The translations under genes and the position numbers were made by a program. This document shows positions 51,275 to 59,591 of a stretch of 64,000 nt of DNA, piece by piece (position 1 is the stretch's first letter; every line of letters begins with the position of its first letter). Below the pieces are notes generated by a model. The model was not told the DNA's origin. It worked only from the letters and a program-made list of their open reading frames with translations, and ran no database searches. Source of the stretch: an uncultured Candidatus Saccharibacteria bacterium (GTDB lineage Bacteria > Patescibacteriota > Saccharimonadia > Saccharimonadales > UBA4665); NCBI GenBank assembly GCA_964541145.1, contig CAZIOX010000006.1:1899-65898 (forward strand). The letters run 5' to 3'.

Positions 51275-53362
51275 TTATTTCGAGTTTTTGGCGATGATGG
51301 CTTCGGCGACATTGTTAGGTACGTCGGCGTAGTGCGCAAGCTCCATGCTTGAGCTGGCTCGGCCTTGGCTCATCGAGCGCAGGTTTGTGGTGTAGCCAAA
51401 CATCTCTCCAAGTGGAACGAACGCTGTAATTTCCTTGATCCCAGACGAAAGATCCTCCATGGACTCGATGCGCCCGCGCTTGCTGTTTAGGTCGCCTATG
51501 ACGTCGCCCATAAACTCTTCAGGGGTGACGACGACGACTTTCATAACTGGCTCAAGCAGAACGGGGCCAGCTTTTTTGAAGCCGTCCTGGAAGCCCATAC
51601 TACCGGCTATGCTAAAGGCCATTTCGTTACTATCGACTTCGTGGTAACTGCCGTCGTACAACTCAACTTTCACGTCTACGACCGGGTAGCCAGCGATAAC
51701 ACCGTTGCTCATGGCTTCTTCTATACCCTTGCGCACGGCGGGGATGTATTCGGAAGGCACCACGCCACCCTTGATAGAGTTTATGAACTCAAAGCCAGCG
51801 CCCTGTTCGTTTTGACTCAGTCGCAACCAGACATCACCGTACTGACCGCGTCCACCACTCTGGCGGACAAACTTGCCTTGGGCTTCCACGGCATCTTTAC
51901 GGATGGTTTCACGGTAAGCCACTTGTGGCTGTCCGATGTTGGCCTCCACGCTAAACTCGCGTTTCATACGGTCGACGAGGATTTCGAGGTGTAACTCACC
52001 CATGCCAGAGATGATAGTCTGGCCGGTTTCGTCGTCAACACGAACGCGGAAAGTGGGGTCTTCTTCGGCGAGTCGCTGGAGTGCGAGGCTCATTTTCTCT
52101 TGGTCGGCCTTGGTCTTTGGCTCGATGGCAATAGACACGGGTGGCTCTGGGAAGGTAATGTTTTCGAGCTGAATGGGGTGTGCTGGGTCGCAGAGTGTAT
52201 TGCCAGTGGTCGTGCCTTTGAGGCCTACGATAGCAGCGATGTCACCAGCGACTACTTCGGTCACGTCTTCGCGCTTGTCGGCTTGCATGCGGACAATGCG
52301 ACCGACACGCTCTTTTTCGCCCGTTGAGCTGTTCAGCACATATGAGCCGGCCTGAAGTACGCCGGAATACACACGGAAGTAGGCGAGCTTACCAACAAAT
52401 GGGTCGGTGGTGATTTTGAAGGCCAGGCCAGCGAGCGGTTCGCTCGTGTCGTGTTTGCGCTCGATCTCTTCACCAGTTTTCGGGTGCACGCCCCAGGCGT
52501 TGCTGCGGTCATCTGGTGCTGGTAGATAATCGTTGACCATGTCTAGCACTTTTTCGACGATGACGCCGCGGCCATCACCACCGGTGACGGCATAGAATTT
52601 ACCGCTCAGCACCGCACTGCGTATGGCTTGCTTGATATCTTCCACGCTCAAACCTTCTTCGCCAACCTCAAAGTACTTTTCGAGCATGGCTTCGTCTTCG
52701 GCGACAGCGTTTTCGATAAGCAGACTGCGGTATCGCTTCACCTGTTCCATCATGTCAGCCGGAATATCACCCTCGACGAGTTCGTGGTCGTGGAACTCGG
52801 TGTAGGTGTAGCTCTTCATCGCGACAAGGTCGACAACTCCATTAATACTCTGTTCAAAACCGATGGGGAGATGTACGGGGAAGGCACGCTTGCTCAACCG
52901 GTTATGAATACTCTCGAGCGATTTGTAGAAGTCGCCACCAGTTTGGTTGATTTTATTGATGAAACAGATACGTGGCACACCGTACTTGTCTGCCTGACGC
53001 CAAACCGTTTCGGATTGGCTTTCGACGCCCATTTTGCCGTCGAAAACCACACAGGCTCCGTCGAGAACACGAAGTGAACGTTCCACTTCGGCAGTAAAGT
53101 CGATGTGGCCTGGCGTGTCGATAATGTTGATCTGCTTGCCCTTCCAAAAGCAGGTCACAGCAGCTGACACGATGGTAATGCCGCGTTCACGCTCCTGGTC
53201 CATCCAGTCGGTTGTAGTGCCACCTTCGTGCACGGCACCAATTTTGTGCTTCAGACCCGTTCGGTACAAAATACCTTCGGTCGTCGTCGTTTTGCCCGCG
53301 TCGATGTGGGCTATGATACCCATGTTGCGGATGTCTTTCATCAAAACTTTTTTATCTGCCAT
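51275..53362 (-). CDS. fusA: Elongation factor G
   Basis: AHIDAGKTTTTE, DTPGHIDF and NKIN motifs. 695 aa. Confidence 0.98.
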   Translation of the reverse strand: MADKKVLMKDIRNMGIIAHIDAGKTTTTEGILYRTGLKHKIGAVHEGGTTTDWMDQERERGITIVSAAVTCFWKGKQINIIDTPGHIDFTAEVERSLRVLDGACVVFDGKMGVESQSETVWRQADKYGVPRICFINKINQTGGDFYKSLESIHNRLSKRAFPVHLPIGFEQSINGVVDLVAMKSYTYTEFHDHELVEGDIPADMMEQVKRYRSLLIENAVAEDEAMLEKYFEVGEEGLSVEDIKQAIRSAVLSGKFYAVTGGDGRGVIVEKVLDMVNDYLPAPDDRSNAWGVHPKTGEEIERKHDTSEPLAGLAFKITTDPFVGKLAYFRVYSGVLQAGSYVLNSSTGEKERVGRIVRMQADKREDVTEVVAGDIAAIVGLKGTTTGNTLCDPAHPIQLENITFPEPPVSIAIEPKTKADQEKMSLALQRLAEEDPTFRVRVDDETGQTIISGMGELHLEILVDRMKREFSVEANIGQPQVAYRETIRKDAVEAQGKFVRQSGGRGQYGDVWLRLSQNEQGAGFEFINSIKGGVVPSEYIPAVRKGIEEAMSNGVIAGYPVVDVKVELYDGSYHEVDSNEMAFSIAGSMGFQDGFKKAGPVLLEPVMKVVVVTPEEFMGDVIGDLNSKRGRIESMEDLSSGIKEITAFVPLGEMFGYTTNLRSMSQGRASSSMELAHYADVPNNVAEAIIAKNSK

Positions 53363-53407: not shown

Positions 53408-53773
53408 TTATTTCGTACCATTTGTTTTGTTAATTAAGCCTGTTAGTACTTTGTGGCACGCTATGCTCGCTTCATCCAGCTCTTGGTATACATGATTTTG
53501 TATATAGCGAACGTCCTTTGCCACCAATAGCTGCGCTTGAACCTCATGCAATGAAGCCCGCGCCATATCGTAAAAGTGCGTTCGATCTGCCATAGTTCTT
53601 CGGCCAAATCCTTCTGCTATATTCGAAACAATTGATACGGTTGATCGCCGGATTTGATTGGTAAGACCGAAAATCTCATCTTTTGGAAAATCTTTGGTAA
53701 TCTTATAGATTTCTAAAGTTAAAGCATGTGACTTTTGCCAAGCAATGAGGTCTCGAAATGTATGGATGCTCAT
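53408..53773 (-). CDS. Four-helix-bundle protein of the '23S rRNA intervening-sequence protein' family
   Basis: FRDLIAWQKSHALTLEIYKITKDFPKDEIFGLTNQIRRSTVSIVSNIAEGFGR matches the family signature (W-Q-K-A, Q-x-R-R-A-x-x-S-I-x-x-N-I-A-E-G). 121 aa. Confidence 0.8.
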   Translation of the reverse strand: MSIHTFRDLIAWQKSHALTLEIYKITKDFPKDEIFGLTNQIRRSTVSIVSNIAEGFGRRTMADRTHFYDMARASLHEVQAQLLVAKDVRYIQNHVYQELDEASIACHKVLTGLINKTNGTK

Positions 53774-53818: not shown

Positions 53819-54298
53819 TTAGCCCCTAGCAAAATGCGCGAACGCACGGTTCGCTTCGGCCATGCGGTGGGTGTCTTCACGCTTTTTCACTGCACTGCCC
53901 TGGTTGTTGTAGGCGTCCATGAGTTCTAGAGCGATGCGGTCAGCCATGCTCATGCCTTTACGGGCGCGGGCAGCAGCTACGAACCACATCGTAGTGAGGT
54001 GGTTTTGACGCTGACCCTTTACCTCAAATGGAATCTGGTAGTTGGCACCACCGACACGGCGAGAGCGAGTCTCGACATTGGGGCGGATGTTACTGAAAGC
54101 CTGCTCGAACACGTCGAGTGGGTTGTCTACCTTTAGTTTTTTGGCAGCAGTTTCCATGCCCGTGTAGACGAGGCGTTCGGCGACTTGCTTTTTACCATCG
54201 CGCATAACGCGGTTTATCAGCCGCTGCACGGGTACGCTGTTGTACACGCGGTCAGCGGGAATATCACGAACAAGTGAGGCGGTTACTTTCCTAGGCAT
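53819..54298 (-). CDS. rpsG: 30S ribosomal protein S7
   Basis: MPRKVTASLVRDIPADRVYNSVPVQRLINRVMRDGKK. Confidence 0.95.
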   Translation of the reverse strand: MPRKVTASLVRDIPADRVYNSVPVQRLINRVMRDGKKQVAERLVYTGMETAAKKLKVDNPLDVFEQAFSNIRPNVETRSRRVGGANYQIPFEVKGQRQNHLTTMWFVAAARARKGMSMADRIALELMDAYNNQGSAVKKREDTHRMAEANRAFAHFARG

Positions 54299-54465
54299 TA
54301 TTTTTTTCCTCCATTTTTCATTTGGGCAACAATTTTGTCTGACTCTGACACAATAGCCACACCGATAATCACCCCTAGAACACGTACCATGTCTGAGACA
54401 GCGAGCAGCGAAACGGCGACAACTATAGCAGCACCTAAGAATACAATAAGGTACTTAGCGTTCAT
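54298..54465 (-). CDS. Small 2-TM membrane protein B (55 aa) between rpsL and rpsG
   Basis: My hand translation is MNAKYLIVFLGAAIVVAVSLLAVSDMVRVLGVIIGVAIVSESDKIVAQMKNGGKK followed by a stop. AAGGAG lies 8 nt upstream of the ATG. The TAA overlaps the rpsG ATG, and the last codons carry the GGAGG SD for rpsG. Confidence 0.55.
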   Translation of the reverse strand: MNAKYLIVFLGAAIVVAVSLLAVSDMVRVLGVIIGVAIVSESDKIVAQMKNGGKK

Positions 54466-54628
54466 GCTTCTTCTCCTTCTGCGCATCAGTGATCCATGCG
54501 ATAGATAGCAGGACAATTATAAGAACGAGAGCGATCTGTAGCCAACGAAGCTTTTGTGCCGAAGTCACTATGAGCACCGTATTGAGTGCAAGAATGCTTA
54601 CGAGTCGCTGAATGTCTTTCGGGCTCAT
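54455..54628 (-). CDS. Small 2-TM membrane protein A (57 aa) between rpsL and rpsG
   Basis: My hand translation is [57 protein letters not shown] followed by a stop. The ATG overlaps the rpsL TAA (TAATG), and the SD AAGGAGAG lies within the last rpsL codons. Confidence 0.55.
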   Translation of the reverse strand: MSPKDIQRLVSILALNTVLIVTSAQKLRWLQIALVLIIVLLSIAWITDAQKEKKHER

Positions 54629-55041
54629 TATTTGCTCTCCTTCTTAGCGCCATATTTGCTGCGGCCTTGTTTGCGGTTTTGGACTCCTTGGAGATCGAGG
54701 GTGCCGCGGACGATGTGGTAGCGTACGCCCGGAAGATCCTTCACGCGACCGCCACGAATCATAACGACGGCGTGTTCTTGCAAGTTGTGGCCTTCGCCGC
54801 CAATATATGCCCAGACTTCGTAGCCATTGCCAAGACGCACGCGGGCAACCTTACGCAGAGCTGAGTTTGGTTTCTTTGGGGTTTTGGTAGTGACCTTCAC
54901 ACACACGCCACGCTTAAACGGTGCAGCTTTCTCGTAATGTTTTGTTTTTAAGTTGTTGGTGACGCGCATAAGCGCTGGTGACTTCGTTTTGTGAGTCACC
55001 TTGGTGCGCGGTTTGCGTACCAATTGGTTGATTGTAGGCAC
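54628..55041 (-). CDS. rpsL: 30S ribosomal protein S12
   Basis: GTG start. [12 protein letters not shown]...[15 protein letters not shown]. Confidence 0.95.
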
Positions 55042-55631: not shown

Positions 55632-58600
55632 TTAGTTTGAGCCGTCGCCCGAACCGTCAGAAATACCATCGGCAATGCTTTCGACATCCTGAGGTTCGTC
55701 ATCGTCGATGTCTGGCCGCATGTCGGCGACCATAACCGTTGGCTCCTCGACTTGCTGCCGAGCAACAAACTGTTCTCCCTCATAGCTGTCGTCACCTTCA
55801 TCGAGTGCGTTGGAAGCGCCGTACCCAGTACCAACTGGGATTTTGCGACCCAAAATGACATTTTCTTTGAGGCCGAAGAGCTTATCGATGCGACCACTAG
55901 TCGCAGCACCAATCAAAACACGAGTCGTGTCCTGGAAGCTTGCGGCACTCAAGAACGAGTCAGTTGACAAGCTTGCTTTGGTGATACCAAGTAGCAGCTG
56001 GTTGACCTTAGCAGGCTGTTGGGAGGCCGCAACAAGGGCTTCGTTCGCCTCGGCTACAGCGAGCTTGCTGACTACGTCACCCGTTACGAACTCGCTATCT
56101 CCCGCATCTTCCACCTGCACGCGACTGAACATCTGGCGAACGATAATCTCGAGGTGCTTGTCTGAGATATTTTGTCCCTGACCAGCAAAAATACCAAGAA
56201 TTTCGTTCATGATGTATCGCTGCGTTGCCTCAACACCCTGCAGGCGAACCAAATCGTGCAAGTTGATCGAACCGTTCGTCAAACGCTGACCAGCGACGAC
56301 GGTGTCACCATCCTGGATAAGCATTTGCTTGAACCCTGGTATTTCGTAGCGCACCAGGCTCTTGGCGGTCGGGGTAATGATGACTGACTTATCAGTAAAC
56401 TCAGCCTTACCTGCCATCGGTGAGATAACCGGTTCTGCCCCACCCTCGTGACTAGCCAGAACATCGCCAATCGCCACATCTGAGCCAGTTGCAATCGACG
56501 GCTGACGACCGGTGAGTTCAATCTCAACCTTTTCTTGGTCGTCGGCTGTCACCTGGACGATGTAATGATCGCCTTCCTCCCAGGTGTTAGCGACACCAGC
56601 GATGTCAGTCAGGTACGCCTGACCTTTTGGCTGGCGGGCTTCAAAGAGTTCTTCGATACGACTGAGCCCCTGGGCAGTATCGTCGGCGACCGCAGCACCA
56701 GACCGGTGCTTGGAGTCGAGCGACAGCTGCGTACCAGGCTCGCCGATGGACTGCGCCGCAATGACACCAATCGGGTTATGACTGGCTACCAAATGCCCTG
56801 TCGCTGGGTCAACCCCATAGCTCTTTTGCGGCACACCATGTACTGAAGTAGCGCTGAGAGCACTTCGGATCTTGACACCATCGAGTTTTTCGTCGGCGTC
56901 AACTGCCTCCGCAATGTCTTTCGTAAAGACTTCTCCGGCAGCAATATAACCCGCTACCTCTTCAGCAGCATAGCGGCCTTCGAGTCGAGATGCGTACGAC
57001 ACGCCGATAGCGGCAGCATCTTCGCGAAGCATCTTGAAACCTGGATCTGTTGCGTCGTCCGCATCATCATCAATGGTAAAGACGTCTTGCGAAACATCAA
57101 CGAGACGGCGCGTCAGGTAGCCTGCGTCAGCAGTCTTTAGGGCAATGTCAATGACCGCTTTTCGGGTACCGCGGGTACCAGTAAAGTACTCGAGTGGGTT
57201 CAGCCCGTGCATATAACCAGCCTTAACCGGTAGTTCAATGATATGCCCGGCAGCATCCTGGAACACACCCAGCATACCGACTGACATTTTCATCTGGGAA
57301 ATATTGCCGCGGGCGCCAGAAGTAATAGCGATGGCCATTGAACCGTCTTGCCCCTGCATTTGTTCGGAAAGCATGTTTTGGACGCGGGTATCTATTTTTG
57401 TCCAGTTTTCGACGGTCAAACGGTGTCGTTCGTCGTCGGTAATGAAGCCCTGGTCGTATTGATCGGAGATGTTAGCACTCTTCGTTTCACCCTCATCGAT
57501 AACCTTTTCGAGTCCATCGATTGGTACGAAGTCGCCCATGCCCATACTGAGTCCCGACATCGTAGCGTAGCGAAAACCGAGATCTTTGAGGTCATCGGCG
57601 ATTTGCGCGGTCTTTTCCTGGCCGTATTTCTGGTACACAGCTGCCATGACTTTTTGCAGTCGCTTTTTGGTCATTGGCTCATCATGGAACGTAAAATCTT
57701 CTGGGAAAATTTCGTTGAAGTAAATTCGACCAAGGGTGGTGTCACGGATTTCGCCCCTAAACTGCACTTTTACACGGTCCTGTAGGTTGATGACATTGGC
57801 ATCAAACGCCATCGAAGCTTCATCAAGGCTTGAAAAGGCTCGTGGAGTTTGGGCTGCATTTGGGCGCTCGTATGTCAGATAGTAGCAGCCGAGAACTATG
57901 TCTTGTTCGATGTGCAGAATAGGCGAGCCATCGGCTGGCTTGAGCAAATTACGGCTGGCCGACATAATATCGCGGGCCTCTGCTTGAGCAGCATCGCTCA
58001 GTGGCAAATGTACCGCCATCTGGTCGCCGTCAAAGTCAGCATTGAAACCTTTACATACCAAGGGGTGTAGCTGAATAGCGCGCCCTTCGATAAGTACCGG
58101 CTGAAATGCCTGAATACTGAGTCGGTGCAGCGAAGGAGCACGGTTCAAAAGCACATATTTGCCTTTGATGACATCGTCAAGGGCGTCCCACACTTCGGTT
58201 TCACCCGTTTCAATCATGCGGGTAGCGCTCCGAATATTGTGGGCTTGTTCACGGAAAATAAGCTCACCGATGACAAATGGTTTGAACAGTTCCAGCGCCA
58301 TCATCTTCGGCAGACCACATTGGTTTATCGTCAGCTCTGGCCCCGCAACGATGACAGAACGTCCAGAGTAATCGACACGCTTGCCGAGCAAGTTTTGGCG
58401 GAATCGACCCTGCTTACCTTTGAGCATGTCGCTCAGGCTCTTGAGCCGACGGCGCTGGCCGGTTGCGGCGACCGCACGTCCACTACGGGCATTGTTGTTG
58501 TCGATCAGCGCATCGACCGCTTCTTGTAGCATTCTCTGCTCATTTCGTCTAATGACCTCTGGGGCATTTAACTCCATCAATTTTTTCAGACGGTTGTTGC

Positions 58601-59591
58601 GGTTGATGACGCGGCGATACAGGTCGTTGAGGTCGCTAGTGGCAAATCGACCGCCAGTGAGCTGCACCATTGGACGGAGGTCCGGGGGAATGACCGGCAG
58701 AACGCTGAGGCACATGCTTTCAGGCTTTATGCCAGCTCGCTCCATACTTTCGAGGAGGCGCAAACGCTTCATGAGCTTCTTCTTGCGCTGTCCCTTTGCC
58801 TCTTCGGCCTCGGTAGTCAGGTTGGCAATAAGTTCGGCAAGATCGATCTCCTGCAGCAGGTCGCGTAGTGCGGCGCCACCCATGCCGACGGTAATCATAG
58901 CGCGCAGTTCGCTCGGCAAGTTGCGGTAATCGGTCTCGTTCATGAGGCTCAGTTTGACCAGACTATCGAGTTGAGTTTTGAGCAGTTCCCAGTCAGTATC
59001 GAGCGCTTCGAGTTCTTTCGTCTGAGCTTCCGCCAAAGCCTTGACATCGGCACCTTCGGCCGCTGCCTCTGTTTCGTACCGAAGTTTAATGGCCTGCTGT
59101 GCGGCTTGCCACTCAGCTTCTTTGTCCGCCCTGTATTGATCTCGGAGGGCTTCGTTGACACTCTTGACGATGTAGCTTGCAAAATACGCCACACGTTCGA
59201 GGTTTTTCACCGTCATACCGAGCAGTAGCCCTACAGCACTCGGGGTGCCACGCAGGAACCAAATGTGGGCAACAGGAACAGCCAAGTTGATGTGACCCAT
59301 GCGTTCACGTCGGACAATGCTGCGCGTTACCAGCTCACCGTTTTTGTCGACAGCGGCTTCGCGAGAACGAACACCTTTGTATTTGGCATCGTGTGGGTTG
59401 ATGTCTTTAACTGGTCCAAAGATGCGTTCGCAGAACAAGCCGTCCCGCTCTGGTTTTTGCGTACGGTAGTTAATGGTTTCTGGCTTGAGAACCTCACCGT
59501 AGCTCCAGTCTTCGATGTCGCGACTACTTGCGACGGCCAAGCGTACTGCATCAAAATCGGCAATATTTGTTCCGTAAGAATAGCGACGCAT
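55632..59591 (-). CDS. rpoC: DNA-directed RNA polymerase beta' subunit
   Basis: 1319 aa, with NADFDGDQMAVHLPLS. The start abuts the rpoB stop. Confidence 0.98.
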   Translation of the reverse strand: MRRYSYGTNIADFDAVRLAVASSRDIEDWSYGEVLKPETINYRTQKPERDGLFCERIFGPVKDINPHDAKYKGVRSREAAVDKNGELVTRSIVRRERMGHINLAVPVAHIWFLRGTPSAVGLLLGMTVKNLERVAYFASYIVKSVNEALRDQYRADKEAEWQAAQQAIKLRYETEAAAEGADVKALAEAQTKELEALDTDWELLKTQLDSLVKLSLMNETDYRNLPSELRAMITVGMGGAALRDLLQEIDLAELIANLTTEAEEAKGQRKKKLMKRLRLLESMERAGIKPESMCLSVLPVIPPDLRPMVQLTGGRFATSDLNDLYRRVINRNNRLKKLMELNAPEVIRRNEQRMLQEAVDALIDNNNARSGRAVAATGQRRRLKSLSDMLKGKQGRFRQNLLGKRVDYSGRSVIVAGPELTINQCGLPKMMALELFKPFVIGELIFREQAHNIRSATRMIETGETEVWDALDDVIKGKYVLLNRAPSLHRLSIQAFQPVLIEGRAIQLHPLVCKGFNADFDGDQMAVHLPLSDAAQAEARDIMSASRNLLKPADGSPILHIEQDIVLGCYYLTYERPNAAQTPRAFSSLDEASMAFDANVINLQDRVKVQFRGEIRDTTLGRIYFNEIFPEDFTFHDEPMTKKRLQKVMAAVYQKYGQEKTAQIADDLKDLGFRYATMSGLSMGMGDFVPIDGLEKVIDEGETKSANISDQYDQGFITDDERHRLTVENWTKIDTRVQNMLSEQMQGQDGSMAIAITSGARGNISQMKMSVGMLGVFQDAAGHIIELPVKAGYMHGLNPLEYFTGTRGTRKAVIDIALKTADAGYLTRRLVDVSQDVFTIDDDADDATDPGFKMLREDAAAIGVSYASRLEGRYAAEEVAGYIAAGEVFTKDIAEAVDADEKLDGVKIRSALSATSVHGVPQKSYGVDPATGHLVASHNPIGVIAAQSIGEPGTQLSLDSKHRSGAAVADDTAQGLSRIEELFEARQPKGQAYLTDIAGVANTWEEGDHYIVQVTADDQEKVEIELTGRQPSIATGSDVAIGDVLASHEGGAEPVISPMAGKAEFTDKSVIITPTAKSLVRYEIPGFKQMLIQDGDTVVAGQRLTNGSINLHDLVRLQGVEATQRYIMNEILGIFAGQGQNISDKHLEIIVRQMFSRVQVEDAGDSEFVTGDVVSKLAVAEANEALVAASQQPAKVNQLLLGITKASLSTDSFLSAASFQDTTRVLIGAATSGRIDKLFGLKENVILGRKIPVGTGYGASNALDEGDDSYEGEQFVARQQVEEPTVMVADMRPDIDDDEPQDVESIADGISDGSGDGSN

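Follow-up and report, generated by a model that had tools for sequence, protein, structure and literature searches.

Few gene strings in bacteria are as conserved as the str operon, and the small membrane proteins of bacteria are poorly charted; AcrZ, KdpF, CydX and MgtS are small bacterial membrane proteins encoded inside the operons of the complexes that they modulate. At the rpsL-rpsG junction of E. coli, synthesis of ribosomal protein S7 is coupled to that of ribosomal protein S12, and S7 exerts autoregulation at the intercistronic RNA (PMC3616713; coupling is reviewed in PMC12548453, PMC6728339 and PMC10666635). Termination-reinitiation has been described for overlapping gene pairs (PMC6728339, PMC10666635, PMC12548453). 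The DNA analyzed here, referred to as the window, is a stretch of 64,000 nucleotides (nt) from an uncultured Candidatus Saccharibacteria bacterium (assembly GCA_964541145.1, contig CAZIOX010000006.1, positions 1,899 to 65,898), in which two open reading frames (ORFs) of 57 and 55 amino acids (aa), named ORF57 and ORF55, are located between rpsL and rpsG. In the reading that we consider likely, ORF57 and ORF55 represent independent cassettes without promoters of their own, stacked one behind the other in a hypervariable rpsL|rpsG slot, translationally coupled to their neighbors and encoding dispensable membrane proteins. A literature search returned no paper pairing Saccharibacteria with rpsL and rpsG, and no description of the slot was found.

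The four genes and the Shine-Dalgarno (SD) sequences that link them are arranged as follows.

54628-55041, minus strand: rpsL (ribosomal protein S12), 137 aa, GTG start; ORF list, Pfam PF00164 (E 2.3e-36)
54637-54642, minus strand: SD sequence AAGGAG for ORF57, within rpsL, 8 nt before the ATG; read from the sequence
54455-54628, minus strand: ORF57 (P0001), 57 aa, putative cassette 1, predicted two-helix membrane hairpin; homologue P0012, AlphaFold2 model
54473-54478, minus strand: SD sequence AAGGAG for ORF55, within the ORF57 tail (KEKK), 7 nt before the ATG; read from the sequence
54298-54465, minus strand: ORF55 (P0002), 55 aa, putative cassette 2, member of a predicted two-helix membrane microprotein family; family matches, synteny, nonsynonymous below synonymous divergence, AlphaFold2 model
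54308-54312, minus strand: SD sequence GGAGG for rpsG, within the ORF55 tail (NGGKK), 9 nt before the ATG; read from the sequence
53819-54298, minus strand: rpsG (ribosomal protein S7), 159 aa; ORF list, Pfam PF00177 (E 1.8e-53)

Pfam thus identifies S12 and S7 on the two sides of the pair. The rpsL TAA (54630-54628) overlaps the ORF57 ATG (54628-54626) by 1 nt in a TAATG that reads AAGGAGAGCAAATAATGAGC, the ORF57 TAA (54457-54455) lies 11 nt inside ORF55 (ATG 54465-54463) at a junction that reads AAGGAGAAGAAGCATGAACGCTAAG, and the ORF55 TAA (54300-54298) has one base in common with the rpsG ATG (54298-54296) in a second TAATG that reads GGAGGAAAAAAATAATGCCT. The offsets of -1, -11 and -1 nt give the stop/start proximity of a translationally coupled chain, and each start is preceded 7-9 nt upstream by an SD sequence located within the preceding coding sequence, that of ORF57 being held by the last rpsL codons (KKESK). 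No promoter or terminator signal exceeding chance was found between rpsL and rpsG. An earlier reading of the window by itself (the original prediction) had described these overlaps and SD sequences and had taken them as the geometry of tight coupling; both points stand, on the minus strand, except that the SD of ORF55 is spaced from its start by 7 nt rather than the 8 nt given there.

ORF55 belongs to a family of at least 11 distinct members, with further strain variants, of 54-62 aa predicted helical hairpins. The family is defined here by a length of 54-62 aa, a Gly in each helix, the motif R-(I/L)(I/L)LT..GVA..S, a K-rich tail and a location between rpsL and rpsG; ORF55 has all of these and matches the family profile with E 1e-19. 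A word-indexed search of 5.8 billion proteins found no homologue of ORF55, and a single-sequence search of 40 relatives gave only weak syntenic matches in G021 (E 3.5e-5) and G024. The family was reached only by an index-free profile search, in which a profile of four genus members was compared with 1.84 billion representatives and returned ten proteins at E <= 1e-3, i.e., the four queries and six new proteins of 54-59 aa. Each of the six genes lies in the rpsL-rpsG interval of its contig, the junction gaps being -1 to +2 nt, and these contigs come from distant Saccharibacteria whose S7 is only 62-65% identical to that of the window. Another member, found in G587 from another family of the order, likewise lies between rpsL and rpsG. 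The synteny is exclusive, all 11 members being sited at this junction, and public records label them "hypothetical protein".

The ORF55 family has several conserved features. Its proteins start with M-(N/K)-..-Y, the core motif R-(I/L)(I/L)-L-T-x-x-G-V-A-x-x-S is followed by an ..EIA.. segment, the turn is short and often acidic, and the Lys-rich tail is typically KKGxK, with codons that form the rpsG SD. Gly11 and Gly35, one per helix, are invariant. Over the 55 pairs of family members, the mean proportion of nonsynonymous differences (pN) was 0.47 against a mean proportion of synonymous differences (pS) of 0.755, which is saturated, and omega was 0.2-0.6 where computable; a pN below saturated pS points to purifying selection on a protein and not to a neutral spacer. 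The original prediction had made its claim depend on the frames being undisrupted in relatives, and in every carrier found they are intact.

Two observations concern the ends of ORF55-type genes. The last 21 nt of each cassette resemble the S12 tail of its own genome at about 13 of 21 nt, and this likeness is not genome-specific (permutation p = 0.25), so that an origin of the tail as a copy of the local S12 tail, in the manner of a target-site duplication, has no statistical support. In the G587 locus (L082), the last 21 nt of the ORF55-type gene and of rpsL (1480-1500 and 1651-1671) match at 20 of 21 positions and both end in KKGDK-TAA; flanking direct repeats of this kind could allow precise excision, but G587 is the only striking example and other carriers do not show the pattern in general. 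Separately, a 46-aa ORF (…IVGILVASFSDKIAEYI…) in G003 (L044, 1468-1608, minus strand) shows a weak profile match (E 0.001) to the C-terminal half of the ORF55 family. This ORF is situated about 18 kb from rpsL, apparently in the spc ribosomal-protein cluster, where neighboring frames look fragmented and the assembly quality is uncertain.

ORF57 has a homologue in the same position. On contigs carrying the ORF55-family member P0010, a 57-aa protein, P0012, is encoded between the S12 gene and P0010 as the first of two genes in the rpsL-rpsG slot, and it is 42% identical to ORF57 over the full length (E 9e-14). P0012 (L075) ends with the same AAGGAGAAGAAG (KEKK) tail, the site of the SD. In the P0010 lineage the P0012 stop (TAG) is located one base before the next ATG; this TAG is missing in the window, and ORF57 consequently extends 11 nt into ORF55. 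Both frames of the P0012-P0010 pair are intact in at least five strain haplotypes, and the replacements between haplotypes are all conservative (e.g., K/R, V/I, A/V, L/F, I/M, A/S and T/I). No ORF57 homologue was detected in the 40 relatives by single-sequence search or in 400 species of the class, and the word index of 5.8 billion proteins, searched with ORF57 and with an alignment of the ORF57 pair, returned only the queries and P0013. As judged from the sequence, ORF57 and ORF55 are both genuine genes. ORF57 as a diverged duplicate of ORF55 was ruled out by hhalign probabilities of 1.4% and 3.1%.

The slot itself is variable among relatives. S12 and S7 were located in 32 genomes, 26 from the same genus and 6 from other families of the order. 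In 15 of the 32 genomes rpsL and rpsG touch (a TAATG overlap in 13, a gap of 1-2 nt in the other 2), which agrees with the original prediction that the two genes are normally contiguous and that ORF57 and ORF55 are inserted between them; the simplest reading is that direct TAATG contact is the ancestral state. Inserts of 48-329 nt are present in 17 genomes and are of at least five unrelated kinds: (a) ORFs for hydrophobic hairpins of the ORF55 type, in G000, G021, G024 and G014; (b) sequences built of short repeats that have only a 3' module, CGACTGAAAGGAGCCTGTAATG, in common, in G010, G008, G023, G003, G013 and G042; (c) Cys-rich ORFs of 76-78 aa, in G017, G043 and G007; and (d) singletons of 83, 102, 80 and 18 aa. 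Reading is uninterrupted between the S12 stop and the S7 start in every one of the 17, and the junction offsets range from -11 to +6 nt; the bridging ORF (two ORFs in the window) begins at the S12 stop or at most 6 nt from it, and its end falls on the S7 ATG or 8-11 nt past it. The inserts amount to about 1060 codons, for which the chance of all being open in random sequence is of the order of 1e-20, a figure that is overstated since some inserts are homologous. This stop-to-start openness is clearly not due to chance.

Some details of the other insert classes may be recorded here. In the class (b) spacers (L011, L019, L020, L021, L033 and L046) the CGACTGAAAGGAGCCTGTAATG module is translated as "...ERSL*", and the G042 insert starts with MRQETRD..., resembling two bridging ORFs (MRQETR...LRLKGA) in the genome of the window (contig C6, 29844-29954 and 34485-34595, minus strand). 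The class (c) ORFs (L013 in G017, L045 in G043 and L025 in G007) share the motif C-P-x-P-E ... L-C-A ... C-P-L ... R-P-(G/D)-(A/S)-T-L and terminate 8 nt within rpsG in G017 and G043.

Turnover in the slot is evident at the level of sister species and of strains. On a tree of rpsL plus rpsG the insert classes are dispersed, and sister species do not agree in content: the sister of G000 is G008 (class b), and G023 and G042 (class b) group with G014. In sister pairs with flanks 92-96% identical, DNA homology is lost within about 10 nt of the S12 stop and picks up again 0-19 nt ahead of the S7 ATG. The loci L089 and L075 are 94% identical across rpsL, the ORF57 homologue and rpsG, and the ORF55-type gene P0010 of L075 is replaced in L089 by an unrelated 82-aa Cys-containing ORF (L075:1546-1897 vs L089:303-726). 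One breakpoint falls seven codons into the second gene and the other at the S7 start, and the 82-aa ORF shares only its first 7 codons (MNVSRWA) with P0010. ORF55-type genes are mostly found without an ORF57-type gene beside them, and in L089 the ORF57 homologue is accompanied by an unrelated protein that is not of the membrane type; what looks like a pair is therefore a stack of two modules rather than an obligate two-component system. A protein tree of the cassettes, built to test horizontal transfer, lacked resolution and does not separate transfer from repeated loss.

The predicted proteins are small and hydrophobic. ORF55 contains two 17-residue segments with a mean Kyte-Doolittle value >= 1.8 and has a grand average of hydropathy (GRAVY) of 1.12; of the 6387 frames of 45-70 aa that this genome contains, counted from stop to stop, only 9 (0.14%) have two such segments. 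ORF57, with one strong and one moderate hydrophobic segment and a GRAVY of 0.52, is less hydrophobic. AlphaFold2 modeled ORF55 as a helical hairpin (helices 3-21, 25-40 and 42-51; predicted local distance difference test (pLDDT) 86.8 from a 10-sequence alignment) and ORF57 as a two-helix hairpin (helices 3-23 and 28-56; pLDDT 74.8 from only 2 sequences). Two strongly hydrophobic helices had been foreseen in each peptide; this was upheld for ORF55 and only in part for ORF57, though both were modeled as hairpins. Among ORF55 relatives the N-terminus carries a charge of +1, the turn 0 to -2 and the tail +1 to +5, and this distribution, by the positive-inside rule, suggests that both ends of ORF55 would be cytoplasmic (N-in/C-in) with a short acidic outer loop, if the protein is inserted in the membrane as predicted. 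The conserved Gly residues in both helices fit tight helix packing or oligomerization.

We propose that a cassette would consist of three parts, namely a start codon on or next to the preceding stop, a body of about 55 codons, and a Lys-rich tail coding for the SD of the next cistron, a design that would permit stacking without breaking the chain. Ribosomes ending rpsL would re-initiate on ORF57, next on ORF55 and finally on rpsG; production of S12 and S7 would always be accompanied by that of the two peptides, and the coupling of S7 synthesis to S12 would be preserved. Exchange of cassettes would take place by recombination through the conserved S12 and S7 flanks. The products appear to be under purifying selection, yet dispensable and strain-variable. 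Most plausibly they are accessory membrane proteins, small modulating or oligomerizing subunits and not toxins, because constitutive high expression by this wiring together with dispensability favors harmless accessory membrane proteins over toxins or holins.

Several points weigh against this proposal. The translation, abundance and coupling of ORF57 and ORF55 are inferred from sequence only. A sigma-70-like match (TTGGCT-18-TATAAT, 10/12; 54516-54545, minus strand) lies within ORF57 upstream of ORF55 and could allow ORF55-rpsG to be transcribed independently; matches of this kind are no more numerous in the region than chance predicts. ORF57 is supported by one other lineage only, its first hydrophobic segment is of moderate strength only, and the strain changes in its homologue are few, about 6 non-synonymous versus 3 synonymous, which suggests rather relaxed constraint. 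The relatives of ORF55 are 22-46% identical, so that the synonymous divergence (dS) is saturated and omega is poorly estimable. Within the genus, 4 of 28 species carry the ORF55 family, and among the species sampled from the class it was found in 2 of 401; the absence from 24 of 28 and from 399 of 401 means that its function is dispensable. Finally, repeat-derived inserts at the junction are also open, and openness alone is no proof of a useful product.

The last point leads to the strongest of the alternatives, in which foreign DNA that entered the TAATG junction was kept free of stops for the passage of ribosomes and the peptide sequence is irrelevant. It accounts for the openness of every insert whatever its class, including the repeat-built ones that share only the 3' SD module, and for the high turnover of the slot; 22 single bridging ORFs are also present elsewhere in this genome, most of them hydrophilic and several repeat-derived. 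Such pure spacers would not be expected to retain an invariant Gly and a motif, with pN well below saturated pS, across lineages as distant as those in which the ORF55 family is recognizable (S7 62-65% identical). The two-transmembrane (two-TM) profile is rare among frames of this size and yet is retained in nearly all family members, the ORF57 homologue is similar over its full length, and the insert in the window has no repeat or hairpin structure. We regard this explanation as improbable. The only other strongly hydrophobic bridging ORF in the genome, found outside the window on the plus strand of contig C7 (61864-62178), codes for 104 aa with two TM segments, is joined stop-to-start to both neighbors and, judging from its sequence, may encode a TrbC/VirB2-like pilin. 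The insert was also compared with DNA and RNA elements: its predicted fold is no better than that of shuffled sequences (z-score +1.2), no significant inverted repeats occur within 54250-54700, no DNA copies of it were found elsewhere in this genome or genus, and Rfam gave no match within it. An origin from a mobile DNA repeat or miniature inverted-repeat transposable element was ruled out on the first three grounds, and a known RNA element on the last.

Subunits or modulators of the export and insertion machinery (SecYEG/YidC-type), or a tether between ribosome and membrane, could also profit from a supply that scales with ribosome synthesis. The secY gene is part of the spc operon and secE lies upstream of nusG-rplK, i.e., both are found in operons linked to ribosomal proteins, and hairpin membrane peptides with a strongly basic cytoplasmic tail would suit such a role. 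One member of the ORF55 family has a weak SecE match (E 0.017, 15 bits vs a cut-off of 134), and the top rows of a Foldseek search against the Protein Data Bank (PDB), none of them below E = 1, are small accessory subunits of membrane complexes. A core export component would hardly show so patchy and strain-variable a distribution, other occupants of the slot are soluble Cys-rich proteins, and no significant sequence or fold likeness to SecE, SecG, YajC or any other family was found. This role seems quite improbable to us.

The original prediction had drawn attention to membrane-damaging proteins, and the size, the two-helix architecture and the adjacency of the two genes would fit a holin/antiholin pair, a type I-like toxin, an addiction module or a two-TM pore-forming effector of the SLATT kind. 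ORF55 has a PHROG holin match (phrog_1350, E 0.0069) restricted to residues 7-38, with nothing for ORF57 or other family members, and three members of the ORF55 family match SLATT_1 (NF033634) weakly (E 0.1-0.26, 11-13 bits vs a cut-off of 41), with no SLATT match for ORF55 or ORF57 themselves. These matches are below curated thresholds and cover hydrophobic stretches only, and other members lack them; in Pfam, NCBIfam and PHROG neither ORF55 nor ORF57 had a significant match, so that the suggested likeness to holins or type I toxins did not hold up. The independent occurrence of ORF57-type and ORF55-type genes further speaks against a holin/antiholin-like pair. No relationship between the two proteins is detectable (hhalign probability 1-3%). 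No promoter or antisense signal above chance is present, and on sequence features the locus does not resemble a type I toxin-antitoxin system. Strong SDs and coupled starts would wire the genes to constitutive translation with the ribosomal proteins, which argues against a toxin. All genes in the region are on the minus strand, in the order rpoC, rpsL, ORF57, ORF55, rpsG, PF05635 gene and fusA, and no lysis, phage or defense genes are adjacent. The outer three are positioned as follows.

55632-59591, minus strand: rpoC; ORF list
53408-53773, minus strand: gene for a PF05635 "23S rRNA IVS protein" (intervening sequence); Pfam E 1.8e-36
51275-53362, minus strand: fusA; ORF list

On this evidence a membrane-damaging function is highly unlikely. 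It may be added that the next junction, rpsG|fusA, is likewise occupied, by the PF05635 gene (53408-53773).

An assembly or annotation artefact, with a chimeric join or chance frames in what is a metagenome-assembled draft of 21 contigs and 91% completeness, has a negligible probability, since the rpsL-ORF57-ORF55-rpsG stretch is 100% identical in three other, independent public assemblies (which also means that the window allele shows no variation among these contigs) and homologues occupy the same position in many other assemblies. Contigs of this strain derive from SRR12712864, SRR12712865 and ERZ25038514.

Returning to the stacked-cassette proposal, a bolder extension may be put forward tentatively, as possible but on the unlikely side: the rpsL|rpsG junction of Saccharibacteria would be an integrase-less expression slot for modular cassettes that are stacked, deleted or exchanged among lineages by recombination via the ultra-conserved S12 and S7 genes while ribosome flow is kept, and ORF55 and ORF57 would be strain-specific envelope factors. 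Each module would bring a start codon of its own and, at the 3' end, an SD within an S12-tail-like sequence, and the envelope roles might include host attachment, immunity to phage or competitors, or transporter modulation in these episymbionts. If so, forced high translation would make the slot a shop-window for strain-specific factors and a cradle of new microproteins, accessory genes would be acquired and expressed without promoters or integrases, and the junction would allow the emergence of genes from inserted sequence to be studied in a natural setting.

The two microprotein families are without names and were found only inside the str operon, in a candidate-phyla lineage in which a large proportion of the genes lacks an assigned function. 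What is new here is the class of predicted membrane-protein cassettes with its two families, the stacking of modules, the strain-level swap and the count of 17 bridging inserts in 17, and through the bridging rule translational coupling can be seen acting as a selective constraint. In practice little follows: such ORFs should be kept by annotation pipelines, and where Saccharibacteria are genetically tractable the slot could be used for neutral insertions with strong expression.

Among known systems, Rickettsia palindromic elements and similar translated repeat inserts resemble the locus in being placed exactly at a gene junction and open stop-to-start, and repeat-derived examples do occupy the slot in relatives; unlike them, ORF57 and ORF55 are without repeat or hairpin structure or further DNA copies and are members of conserved protein families. 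Class II holins, type I toxins and SLATT two-TM effectors are comparable in size, in the two hydrophobic helices and in the basic C-terminal tail, but ORF57 and ORF55 have no significant similarity to them, no lysis or defense neighbors and no separate regulation, and their context is constitutive. AcrZ, KdpF, CydX and MgtS are likewise of about 30-60 aa with hydrophobic helices, co-expressed with their neighbors, usually unannotated and often lineage-restricted; they are encoded beside their membrane-complex partners, whereas the neighbors of ORF57 and ORF55 are ribosomal proteins and the genes are strain-variable.

The E. coli str operon has the same two genes, the stop/start proximity for coupling and SDs embedded in the upstream coding sequence. 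There S7 binds the spacer, which is a non-coding regulatory RNA, whereas in the Saccharibacteria the ancestral spacer would be zero (TAATG) and the insert is protein-coding and without notable structure. Integron cassettes are also promoter-less small ORFs that are stacked in tandem behind an upstream expression signal, vary in content among close relatives and allow unrelated cassettes to share a site. In contrast to integrons, no attC-like inverted repeats are present in 54250-54700 and no integrase was seen in the cassette DNA (the genome was not searched for one); expression would come from translational coupling within an essential operon, and the boundaries of the cassettes are stop and start codons.

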